Source of the DNA: Eledone cirrhosa
Lineage: Eukaryota
Length of the DNA: 64,000 nt
NCBI GenBank assembly: GCA_964016885.1
Contig: OZ024743.1
Location: 204,600,001-204,664,000, forward strand
Direction: 5' to 3'
The notes under the pieces are model-generated. The model worked only from the letters and a program-made list of their open reading frames with translations, did no database searches and had not been told where the DNA came from. Made by a program: the position numbers and the translations under genes. This document shows, in pieces, positions 4,790 to 64,000 of this stretch. The first letter of the stretch is position 1, and the number at the start of each line of letters is the position of its first letter.

Positions 4790-4829
4790 ATGATTTTTCG
4801 TTTTATATTATATATATATGGGATAACAA
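4790..4829 (+). CDS. host gene exon 1 (start of signal peptide, MIFRFILYIYGIT)
   Basis: acaATG context; ends A|gttagg in phase 1, matching the phase-1 acceptor at 5464; hydrophobic leader; present only once in the window. Confidence 0.6.
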
Positions 4830-5463
4830 GTTAGGTGATCCCGTTAGAGGTTGTTATAATTCACTTGATTCTCCGATGTATCTATAAATACCAATGCTAT
4901 GTGTTACACCCTCCAGTATTCTGATGATTTGATCAGAGTCGCACACAGTATTCAAGGTCGATAGATGCAACTTCGAATGATTAGCGTCCTTTAGACTCAC
5001 CTGATCAATGAAACAATTGTTAATACTGTAAATAAAACCCTTTTTGTACAGCCGACCATGTTATTCTTCACTCTTTCACTACTATATATATATTATATAT
5101 ATATATATATATATATATATATATATATATATATATATATATATATATATATATATATATATATATATATATATACATACACACACACACACACACACAT
5201 ACACATACACATATATATATATAAACATACATATGGCTGAATTCCATACTGTTCTGTTTACATAATTATACTCACAAGATATTGGTCAACCAAAAGATAC
5301 AGTAGAAGACACTTGTAGAAAAATGCACACAATGTAATTAGACCCAGAACCATTTACACACACAAATACATGCACATGGACAAATACACGCATACACAAA
5401 CACTCATATACATGTATATGAAAATTAATACATACTTAATCATTTATCCATCTTTTATTTCAG

Positions 5464-5599
5464 TTCCTATTTCCTGGTGGTTTCCAGTGACCAATGGTTG
5501 TGTAATGAAAGCATTAGAGGAATTTCAAAGTTGTACAGCTGGTTTAATTCAGCCAAGGAAGGCAGACTCGACAAAAGAGGAATTCGATATTTTTTGCAA
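5464..5599 (+). CDS. host gene exon 2, unit 1 (xPISWWFPVTNGCVMKALEEFQSC...EEFDIFC)
   Basis: ttttatttcag| acceptor, aa|gtaatt donor, 136 nt open, phase 1 to 2; end of signal peptide (TNG|C) plus 3 Cys. Confidence 0.78.
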
Positions 5600-5707
5600 G
5601 TAATTTGAATAATCACTTAATCACTTGTCATTACGTTATAAATTTTGAAGTCTTTTATTTATGTTAAAACTCAATACATATATGTATCATTATCTATAAA
5701 ATGCTTG

Positions 5708-6050
5708 GGCGGTGGATTGGCAGTATCAGTAGAGAGTCGGACGCCATGCTTTCCAGCATAGTTACGCCCTTTTACGGTCTGTGTTCAAATCCCGCCGAGG
5801 TTAACTTTGCCTTTCATCCTTACGGGGTCGATAAAATAAAGTACCAGTAATGTACTGGGTGATTGCTGGCCTTGTGCCAAAAGTAGAAACAATTATCTAT
5901 AAAATGCTTTCTAGCATAGTTATGTCCCTTTACATTCTGAGTTCAAATCCCGCCGAGGCTAACTTTGCCTTTCATCCTTATGGGGTCGATAAAATAAAGT
6001 ACTAGTAATGTACTGGCTAATTGCTGGCCTTGTGCCAAAAGTAGAAACAA
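5708..6050 (+). mobile_element. tRNA-derived SINE with partial internal tandem duplication
   Basis: A-box-like tggcagtatcagtag, B box gttcaaatcc (twice), core ttaactttgcctttcatccttacggggtcgataaaataaagtacc; flanked by repeated attatctataaaa (TSD-like). Confidence 0.8.
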
Positions 6051-60169: not shown

Positions 60170-63100
60170 GTATACTCCAGTCCTACAAACTGTAGAGTGC
60201 TTCTTATCCGATATCTGCATTGCTTTATTGTACTACAATAAAACTCACCTCCTACATATATATATATATATAATAAGGGTTGACGGACCCAGCATATTTA
60301 TCAATGCCAGTACCGGTTGTATCTCAGCGCACTCAATGGGCAATGCAAGATACATTACCAGAGTATACACATAGTTATTTGCCTCAACACAACACACGTA
60401 AAACGGGTGCCTATAAGGTTCCCGGACTCGAGTTCTGCAGCATTAACGCAGCAGTAAGGTGCACTGCACCATCTGTCTGCATATATTATGCAACAATACG
60501 CAATCGGCTTATGCGGCTTCATCAGCGGGTATCGCCTAATCAATAAACAAACGATCAACAAAATCCAAACACCGGCCCGTGCCGGTCATGACTGTTTGTG
60601 ACAACCGACATGGTAAAGCGATTAACTGGCAACTGATAGGACTCTATCTCTCAACTAGCCACTGATCTACAAATTTTACGTGGGGACGGGAAGCTAAAAA
60701 GAATCAATCTATTAGTTCCTGTCAGAAGCCCTCAGCCAACGTGTCTCACACACAAATTATCAAGGGGTGAAAAGATGGCTATTAGAAATAGCAGTTCACA
60801 TTGATATAAAATAGAATGGTAGCATTCGATTCATGTCTCCAAGCCCCATGGCTAGAGGAAAGCGATGGTAACAATGGTAGTGCCCAGAACCTTTAACGGA
60901 CATTAAATGCGATCATCCATTATATACCAATATAGTAGCGAGCTGAAATGTGTCAGCCACGTGCGTAGATAACCAGTCTAATTCACAACTTAAAAGACAA
61001 AATTAGTAGCAGGAAAAAGAGTGCATATCAAAAGAAAAACACAATAAGAAGTGAAAAATTGTTTAACTTATATATATATATATAGAGAGAGAGAGAGGGA
61101 GATATATACAACAACACTACAGCTCTCTCTTTCTCTTCCATTCTCCTTCCCTGTCTCCTCTCCCTCTCGCTATGTCTCTCTTTCAATTTACTCTCTCACA
61201 ACTACTATCTCTTTCTCTCTCTCTCTCTCTGTTTCTGAAGGTACCCGGAAAAATCCCATATCTTAGGAACTTGTCCTCCGATTTACGCGAAATTTGATTT
61301 ATTTCATTTGTATTCCCATTTGAGGGTCAACTTCCTTTCAAAGTATTTTCCCATTATGCACCCTTTTTGCTGTATTACATTACAGACAAGCAAGCAAACA
61401 ATCACAGAGTTTTAGTAGTATATAAATAGATAGATGATTTAATTTATTTGCCACTCTGGCTTTCAATGAAGGATTCATTATAAACACAAGTTGCAACATG
61501 AAGATTGAGATTTACATGGAAACTATAAAAACAGGTTAAACATGTATACAAATTGTATACAACTTCATTATTTAGCATTCAAAATAGCTGTATTCAACCA
61601 GAATTCTCTCACTTCTTACTGTTCAAACTGGCTGTAACTGGGTGTAACCGGTTGCTAATATTTATATTGTTTTCAAAATAAATAATATCAAAATCTCATA
61701 GATTCGATATTATGTGAGATAATTAAGTGTCAGTTTTCACACTCGGAGAGAGGGAAAAAAATAAAAATGGTCAAAAATACACTAAATGTTTTACATATAT
61801 AATCATAAATTTCTAAATAAAATAATCCAAAGTACAATATAAAAGCAGTTGTACATAAGATAAAACAATCGCATGTTTTTTATTTAGCTGATGTACCTGA
61901 ATGTTAATTTATTTCGAACTTTAAATTCATTACTGATTAAATTTCATGAATGCTTTCTTTCAATTTGAATTTCAATTAATATTTCTTTACTTCATAATTC
62001 AGGTATTTGAGACTTTCATGTAAATTTCACATTTAATGGTTAAATAGTCATTTAATCATGGAACGGTTTAATCAAAAGCACTACCATATAAATGGCATAT
62101 GCACATCATAAACACGTGACTTATGAAGTATCATAATAAAATAAAAGGAGGAGTGCGGGACTGCATCATGAATATATGTTTTTATCCTGTTAGTAAAATA
62201 ACTTAGATTAATTTGATTAAATAATGGATGAATATTACATAATTTTTGTACTAAATTTCGTAGCTGTTAATTAAACATAAATTTTCTTATATATAATGAT
62301 TGTTTATTCTAAGATTCACTTCTTTTAAAATTTTCAAATGTCTACACTTCTGCTTAGCATCTGTTATGTCATAACACTTATTAGATCGCTTATGTAAACG
62401 TTCATATATTTGCATTGTTATATAAGTTTTATATTTCTGGCACTAATTTTCTCCTTTTTGTTTTCATAAAATTTCACCGTAATGCAATTTATATATAATA
62501 TCGTCTTTATTAAATGTATCATGGATTACTTTACTGATTACAGAAGAGAGTGTAACACAGTCTCTATTCAATTTCTGTTTTATTTGAAGTATCATATCTA
62601 CATGCATGTATATTCGCATATGCATACTACACATGCTAGCAGAAAACCACCTGAAGGGTCGTTTTTCTGCTAGTAAGTATAATGGTCAAGTTTTAAGATT
62701 AAAATTCCAGCAAGAATACATGAGCTGCTGGTGAAGAAAAAAATAACTGCATAAAATGTATTAAATACACATGCCTGCAATCAAAGGTGCAGTAAAGTAA
62801 AGCCACATGTGACTCTGTGTATACCTGCATTCATGTCTGTCTTTTTGTGTTGTTCATGTCACATATGTATTGGAAATTTCTTACCAGATGGCTCTAATCT
62901 ATCTGAGCCATATTTTATTAACTCTGGTTTGTCATACAATTCAGTTATATATCTCTGAATAGTCTTTCTATACACAAAAGATTTAATTCATGTTAACCCT
63001 GTCCATATAAATGATAATACACAAGGATTTTAATTAAACAAACACTATTTGAAAATGTCATCCACTAGAAATGTGGCACTAGTCTCAATATATTTAATAC

Positions 63101-63523
63101 CTATTAACTCTTTATACCAAAACAAAACAAGAATGCACTTTACTTATTAATAAAAAAAAACTTACAGATTCTTCTCCAACTGACTGGCAGATGCTGAATC
63201 TACAAATACTATTCTGCATCATCTCTGCCTCTTCTACTTTTATAACAACAATTGCTGAGCCCTTGAAATTGAAAAACTTGAGCTATATTTGCAAAGCATC
63301 ATTGCCCACTCATATCTGTCAACCTCTAAAAATCCAAACGGGGAGTACCATGAAAAAAAATAATGAAAGCTATACCCATTTTCGCAAGAGAAGAGATCTC
63401 TCACCTACCCTAAAGTGGGTGGGAGATATCCCCATCGGACTGGGAGAGTTGACACACACACACGATTTCAAGAAACTTATTAAAATATTAATGTTGATCA
63501 CATTTTTCTTATTTCTATTTCAG

Positions 63524-63671
63524 TTATGATTCAAGGAACACCTTGTTTAATAAACAACACAAAGAATATTGAACATATAATGATGGTATATAGCAACAAA
63601 TCAATGCCCTTAATGAAGCAAGTGCAAATGAAAGAGATCTCAAAACCGCAATACTACGAAAAATATTGTCC
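63524..63671 (+). CDS. host gene exon 4, unit 3
   Basis: Splice sites intact; A>P, A>T, P>H, L>Q vs unit 1. Confidence 0.65.
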
Positions 63672-64000
63672 GTATGTAGAGAAAAGTTATTTCTAAATAA
63701 TTCTTGATTCAGATATGCTGTAGAATTTTACAGTAATTAGGCACAAACCAGAATATTCTGCATTTGGATATCAACAGGGTTGACTCTCATCTCTCTAATT
63801 GATATAATATATAACAGCAATATACAATAATATGTACACCCTCCTCTTCAAATGTTTGACATGAAATTCACAGTGATATATATACATCAGGTTGTAGATA
63901 GATGTGTGTACCAGTTGTAGCAGTGGGTTCATTATAATCATCATCATTTTACGTCCGCTTTTCCCTGCTTACAAGGGTGGGTCATGTCCTCTTCAGCACA

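Follow-up and report, generated by a model that had tools for sequence, protein, structure and literature searches.

Exon cassettes in tandem in Eledone cirrhosa: a predicted surface protein gene with a latent donor that may link its units

What becomes of a gene when all of its exons but the first are copied in tandem? Do the extra copies lie idle, do they serve as alternatives to one another, or can they be strung together into a longer protein? These questions are raised by a stretch of 64,000 nucleotides from Eledone cirrhosa (GenBank assembly GCA_964016885.1, contig OZ024743.1), hereafter the window, in which exons 2-5 of a gene for a predicted glycosylphosphatidylinositol (GPI)-anchored protein occur in three successive units. 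The genome searched was the 3.0-Gb assembly; plain numbers denote positions in the window, and the prefix C4 denotes positions on the contig, on which the window is C4:204600001-204664000. The answer that we tentatively favor, short of calling it probable, is that the locus would make mainly a single-unit protein together with some chains, the latter formed through a latent donor whose use in E. cirrhosa is deduced from comparison of sequences.

Three cassettes and a latent donor

Self-comparison of the window gives three tandem units, starting at 5177, 21310, and 44025, so that the repeat begins in intron 1. Each unit holds exons 2-5 on the + strand with AG/GT ends, phases 1-2-1-2, open frames, and a hydrophobic tail. 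In unit 1, exon 2 (5464..5599, phase 1 to 2) encodes the end of the predicted signal peptide and the start of the mature domain; exon 3 (8809..8951, phase 2 to 1) and exon 4 (18226..18373, phase 1 to 2) follow, and the coding part of exon 5 (19424..19607) carries the predicted GPI signal. The corresponding exons lie at 21598..21733, 31570..31712, 40941..41088, and 42139..42322 in unit 2, and at 44313..44448, 54157..54299, and 63524..63671 in unit 3, whose exon 5, intact and with a full-length GPI spacer, is found 0.7 kb past the window end (C4:204664722-204664917, + strand). The poly(A) signal of unit 1 consists of two overlapping AATAAA (19843..19853), and an AATAAA stands at the same place, 235-236 nt 3' of the stop, in 12/12 cassettes of the genome. 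The tandem array of three exon 2-5 cassettes is real, and on the start of the repeat, the recurrence of intact exons, and the AATAAA near the end of unit 1 the preliminary description was right. It combines tandem homologous modules behind one signal exon, as in a multi-unit chain, with several complete exon sets that have compatible acceptors and their own 3' ends behind one leader.

As DNA the units are 98-99% identical, and units 2 and 3 share a G in exon 2 (21637 and 44352). They differ in the GPI spacer, from which the same 12 bp (4 residues) are missing in frame in units 1 and 2, while they are present in unit 3. Genome-wide, the spacer is shortened in 4/4 internal cassettes and in 0/8 terminal or single ones, which counts as one event.

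How could such units be joined? Inside exon 5, just before the anchor signal, the donor TCAGATG|gtataa ends at 19548 and 42263; as had been proposed, it is in phase 1 and in frame with exon 2 of the next unit, as at the join 19548>21598. This in-frame exit before the anchor lies at the position where units are joined elsewhere in the family. The donor 9-mer occurs in 12/12 cassettes and is, consequently, not special to internal units. No intron interrupts this codon in the window family, in an older paralogue that lies beside each gene (about 30% identical), or in a broken exon-5 relic at C4:298.76 Mb (C4:298759479-298759620, - strand).

Support for the use of such a donor comes from Octopus. 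Of the three proteins returned by a HMMER search with exon 5 (E<=0.001), two were relatives from Octopus; the clusters of those matches and further searching gave eight relatives (P0002-P0009), all from Octopus species. P0001, an unrelated repetitive protein, was dropped. P0006-P0009 consist of a single unit, whereas P0003 and P0005 (LOC106869700, O. bimaculoides), P0002 (LOC115218675, O. sinensis), and P0004 (CAI9731999.1, O. vulgaris) are chains in which two or three units, each about 190 residues long and in some cases partial, follow one another, and three of these four begin with a signal peptide. All seven internal joins in the chains lie 10 residues after the last cysteine of the unit; the third units, cut one residue early in the alignment, show a one-column overhang. 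The join point is the Gly of SS-G-IK in single or terminal units, which aligns with SD-G-IK in the window family, that is, with G|gtataa. The joining residue is Val or Asp, a choice that fits because the codons of both start with G, as a G|GT split requires. P0008, an isoform of a single-unit gene, is identical to P0007 up to the join Gly and then differs. To judge from these annotated proteins, the Octopus chains probably arose via a donor inside exon 5.

Is the array in E. cirrhosa simply the same duplication, inherited? In a tree from which two partial units were left out, the three window-family rows form their own clade (99/98) and do not group with the chain units, as orthology to the Octopus chain gene would have it; their identity to the Octopus relatives is 28-38%. 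A search of the genome with P0003 found only the window family (13 matches; 35/35 candidates scored). The separate clade and the lack of anything closer in this search argue that the duplication here is independent.

The mechanism that we propose starts from one junction, through which exons 2-5 of a fast-evolving gene, predicted to encode a GPI-anchored surface protein, would have been duplicated; the outcome is three cassettes that follow what is likely one leader, 27 kb upstream. Mainly the one-unit protein would be made from the locus; when RNA reads through, the latent donor that lies in exon 5 at the glycine codon could be spliced to the next exon 2, so that some two- or three-unit chains would be made, anchored by the last unit. 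The preliminary description had put forward the chain-forming splice, which has now gained homology support from the Octopus chains. Contigs of four runs (X1-X4) from one study, of a kind not on record, show no join at 19548 among the rows listed for 18000-22100, nor do the X4 contigs on a paralogous head, and these blanks are evidence neither way.

The leader and the origin of the array

Where, then, does the protein begin? A leader exon had been placed at 4790-4829, and this was not borne out. The region (4680..4850, + strand) is a dispersed repeat with a (TA) tail beside a second dispersed repeat at 4851-5080 (best 40 of 2331 candidates scored). The stretch 4680-4819, which includes the proposed ATG, recurs with 79-86% identity over 130-140 nt at 16 of 32 scored places outside the cluster (best 40 of 841 candidates scored), and the ATG is absent from three of the eight gene heads, those of copies A, B, and H. 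Positions 4790-4829 are very likely intron 1 sequence, and 1..5463 (+ strand) is likely the 3' part of this intron, whose whole length would be 27 kb.

The real leader exon is likely the one at C4:204578476-204578509, 21.5 kb before the first base of the window; it has 34 coding nt, phase 1, and the donor G|gtaagg. It was found among seven ATG-to-donor stretches in the 40 kb upstream of exon 2; four such stretches precede the exon in copy H, and the one encoding MKRFLLLNIFV is present there too. This leader is unique DNA of which eight copies were found, one per locus, all heading the gene family. A homologous 34-nt phase-1 leader heads the older paralogue, and the first 11 residues of the annotated Octopus relatives, before the match to exon 2, are of the same type. 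The eight-copy unique DNA and these two homologies point to a single leader, separated by 27 kb from the first exon 2; C4:204578476 is likely that of the window locus. The architecture first described, one leader and a row of headless cassettes, stands, with a different leader that lies outside the window.

Two other observations concern the start of the gene. The leaders of loci F and G, the latter being the window locus, belong to an inverted duplication, 99.6% identical, in which they lie back to back (C4:204540000-204591499). In 12/12 cassettes an in-frame ATG stands just before the exon-2 acceptor (in the window within 5412-5463, 21546-21597, and 44261-44312); it could allow a leader-free start and is absent in a distant exon-2-like paralogue, K (about 41% identical, C4:233357423-233357550, - strand), for which exons 3-4 were not found in 37 kb.

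A hint of expression comes from run X4, which looks like RNA because in two of its contigs the 8-letter end of exon 3 stands directly before exon 4. Copy H, which lacks the ATG proposed earlier, is the sole copy with all 20 listed alleles between 18181 and 19906; the X4 allele at 20967 is not in H. The check used 30 of 40 rows, all matching some genome copy, with 10 left out that were judged repeat copies elsewhere; X4 does not cover most of exon 2. These contigs, from one sample, hint that H is expressed without that ATG.

In the genome there are 12 close copies each of exons 2, 3, 4, and 5, and hence 12 cassettes for the eight leaders. Five genes are single (A, B, C, and F within 0.8 Mb, H 29 Mb away), loci D and E have two cassettes each, and the window has three. 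Eleven of the cassettes are open; that of B is broken in its exon-4 acceptor and by a frameshift in exon 5. With the likely leader, the open cassettes encode proteins of 214-218 residues, 10 of them cysteines. A 120-160-kb unit is present in seven segmental copies at C4:203.80-204.69 Mb, with one far copy at C4:233.47-233.53 Mb, and every one holds a window-family gene and an older paralogue with a Ser/Thr-rich stalk before its predicted GPI signal.

How did the multi-cassette loci arise? At the boundary of units 1 and 2 (21310..21315, + strand), the 3' flank, 1.7 kb past the stop, meets the (CA) microsatellite of intron 1, and the two sides have 2-6 letters in common. The same junction recurs at 44025 and in loci D and E, that is, at 4/4 places in three loci, and this identity makes one duplication event, copied afterward, the likely history. 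Left of the junction, 1-2 of 1678 sites differ in the four pairs compared among the four junction copies, and against F, H, and unit 3 these tails show 19-22 differences. On the right side, the divergence is 1-3 of 2425 sites for the window and E copies and 13 of 2425 for D. The age of the junction lies between about 0.1% and 1.5% divergence. We suggest that the duplication originated by short-homology joining at the (CA) repeat, was carried to three loci through segmental duplication, and that the third unit was gained through unequal crossing-over. The composition of unit 2 is what unequal crossing-over would give: it is unit-3-like at its start (72/138 informative sites), unit-1-like at its end (56/138), and has 10/138 sites that match neither neighbor, five of them in no other copy.

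Chains, spares, or alternatives?

Are the headless cassettes, those without a leader of their own, in use? By its sequences the family is a multi-copy cluster with strong amino-acid diversification. Among the 12 cassettes, 43 coding variants change an amino acid and three are silent (p=0.008, the silent share expected after weighting for mutation being 0.21); once variants seen only in A and B are set aside, the counts are 30 and 3 (p=0.07). In ten cassettes, exons are more variable than introns (33/549 vs 59/3552 sites, p=3e-8). Variants found only in headless cassettes are enriched in exons as well (12/600 vs 37/10631 intron sites, p=7e-6), and 12/12 of those in exons change the amino acid; for variants found only in headed cassettes, 10/600 exon sites compare with 73 intron sites (p=0.013). 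All these p-values overstate the case because the sites are linked and the cassettes are mosaics.

The older paralogue offers a natural control. Its leader is kept at only one of the eight loci; at the other seven, about 9.7 kb including it is replaced by a 2.1-kb element with inverted ends of about 208 bp (about C4:203958118-203960277 and copies), likely the mark of a transposon-linked deletion. A first comparison of its exons with their flanks (p=0.001) relied on flanks of just 150 nt and on exon limits misplaced by 1-2 nt; the corrected and wider tests that replace it gave p=0.23 to 0.80.

Several observations weigh against chains. No constraint on exons is seen in the older paralogue where it is headless (7/842 vs 101/8808, five copies, p=0.49), and three of its seven headless copies are broken, one by a frameshift and two by loss of exons; headless cassettes in this cluster can, by this example, simply decay. 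The poly(A) signals are intact in 12/12 cassettes, and the donor is weak, with 1256 of 3666 + strand GT sites scoring as high, on a weight matrix that does not separate real from cryptic sites here; the real exon-4 donor scores about the same. The splice position in Octopus is read from proteins only, and an ordinary intron may lie there. When A and B are counted and flanks are limited to 150 nt, the exons of the window family are slightly less variable than these flanks (42/607 vs 110/1151, p=0.06), so that the exon excess depends on leaving out these diverged copies and on the set of introns. The absence of silent changes among the 12 confined to headless cassettes has, alone, p=0.06, and these changes sit in few linked blocks that may have been inherited from headed genes. 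Lastly, the processing of units 2 and 3 may be hampered by the 7-kb hairpin in their second introns.

Much of this would suit silent spares, the explanation that survives best beside the chains. On this account the mRNA ends at the poly(A) site of unit 1, and units 2 and 3, untranslated, are only donors for recombination or gene conversion, in keeping with the mosaic make-up of the cassettes. The preliminary description had stressed that the cassettes are intact, as indeed they are; this says little about use, the copies being so young and so alike that four cassettes would have a rough neutral chance of 0.32-0.80 of staying intact, at the young end of the age range. What silent spares leave unexplained is the excess of amino-acid changes confined to headless cassettes, together with the family precedent for an exit from exon 5 at the join codon. 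They are a serious possibility, somewhat doubtful on balance, and remain close to the chain reading.

A less plausible alternative, which we consider improbable, is that each cassette is expressed singly: the leader would bypass unit 1 and be spliced to the exon 2 of a later unit, 2 or 3; a unit would have its exon 4 joined to exon 5 of a later one; or translation would start without a leader at the ATG before exon 2. The first of these had been proposed with the mistaken leader; its phase compatibility holds, all exon-2 acceptors being phase 1 and intact, and nothing further has come to light for that model as first drawn. With the corrected leader, the distances of 43 and 66 kb to the exons 2 concerned are near the 47-49 kb first introns of A and B, the O. 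bimaculoides isoform P0003 combines sequence of unit 2 and a last exon of terminal type, and C. elegans unc-60 works alike (PMC1781344). The price would be the skipping of three internal exons and one terminal exon with no known regulator, and a leader-free protein would have the weakest hydrophobic core compared (1.78 vs 2.93), from an ATG that paralogue K lacks. Haplotypes or repeats wrongly placed in tandem, most plausibly as the third unit, could account for the mosaic unit 2 and for copies C and F differing by 0-1 site per block, but this is very unlikely given the same junction at three loci with different alleles and insertions, the sites of unit 2 that match neither neighbor, and the absence of any N in 904 kb.

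To return to the chains, a bolder form of that reading can be stated, and we regard it as unlikely as a whole: a latent donor in the anchor-coding last exon would pre-adapt this octopus gene family to chains. A three-unit protein would have come of it in Octopus, and the process would be under way a second time, independently, in the genome studied here, whose junction loci would by now produce variable surface proteins of one, two, or three units, with the headless units under diversifying selection.

The protein, the introns, and known systems

What kind of protein is concerned? The translations show an N-terminal signal, a small-residue site, a spacer, and a hydrophobic C-terminal tail, a pattern read by eye that suggests a GPI anchor. 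Strong amino-acid diversification in multi-copy clusters is common for recognition proteins, and, with the predicted anchor, a role in recognition at the cell surface may be supposed. In the AlphaFold model of the relative P0006 there are 11 helices, and no strand reaches three residues (mean pLDDT, the predicted local distance difference test, 69.6; six-row alignment). Membership of the Ly6/uPAR (LU) family, defined by a three-finger beta fold, was rejected on account of this all-helical model, and DUF19, a UniRef label on some relatives whose source was not seen, did not reach the Pfam cut-off. Neither the four single exons nor 8/8 Octopus relatives matched a Pfam family at cut-off, and sequence searching gave no solved relative. 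The best structural matches (Foldseek, E 0.29; VIA, Z 5.9) are unremarkable for helices and speak neither for a new fold nor for a lack of kin. Word-based protein searches with exon 5 and with one exon of the older paralogue gave no match, and Atlas gave unnamed clusters or none. In the literature, taken as titles and abstract beginnings, no description of the family, no match for four LOC identifiers, and none for a cryptic donor combined with intragenic duplication and GPI were found.

The introns have their own inhabitants. Intron 2 of unit 2 contains a 7-kb palindrome (23557..30458, center near 27066) made of two 5'-truncated Penelope-like reverse-transcriptase copies head to head, with a copy in intron 2 of unit 3 (46274..53045) and another at C4:204377393-204382026. 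It is near-perfect, with long open frames on both arms, and would form a long RNA duplex if transcribed. Its reverse transcriptase matches RVT_1 (30.5 bits, cut-off 29.6); for a C-terminal GIY-YIG endonuclease there is no Pfam match, and a motif in the frame is, by eye, what we take to be GIY-YIG-like. Beside the palindrome, a small inverted rearrangement (30939-31229 and 53526-53816) is present in units 2 and 3 and absent in unit 1. A second retroelement-like frame occupies intron 3 (12634-14834, 35358-37558, and 57936-60143, - strand), which is split in the first two units and stays open over 735 residues in the third; it has no Pfam match at E<=1 and carries, by eye, a motif presumably of reverse-transcriptase type.

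By the time multi-domain surface proteins come into view, the copying of their modules usually lies far in the past. In the present case, one family would offer both the start state, with copies 98-99% identical that keep tail and poly(A) site, and the finished state, with diverged three-unit chains, and the two share the same predicted splice point. Whether a chain appears straight after a duplication bears on how modules of a terminal exon become repeatable.

How does this plan compare with what is known? Penelope-like elements occur as inverted copies set head to head around a short palindrome (PMC3846280); the palindrome of the window shares the reverse transcriptase, the inverted copies, and the short palindrome, and is an unremarkable passenger of its intron. 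Tandem duplication of exons in humans has been treated (PMC8373072), with no further bearing on the window. In unc-60, one first exon precedes two alternative exon sets, each with its own 3' end (PMC1781344), and the isoforms are demonstrated and regulated by tissue, whereas at the window locus such isoforms are hypothetical and the copies are 98-99% identical as DNA. In uPAR and other multi-LU GPI proteins, a signal exon is followed by a phase-1 module in tandem and by one GPI anchor (PMC6600238). The modular plan is the same, with a different fold, the window relative being all-helical by model; and, unlike in uPAR, a latent donor is needed, because the module ends inside the terminal exon. 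The Octopus chain genes agree with the window in leader length, cysteine pattern, unit length, and C-terminal signal, and their join falls at the matching glycine. Their units, however, are 38-58% identical to each other, and the internal ones are without the anchor tail, whereas the three cassettes compared here are 94-95% identical and keep both tail and poly(A) site.

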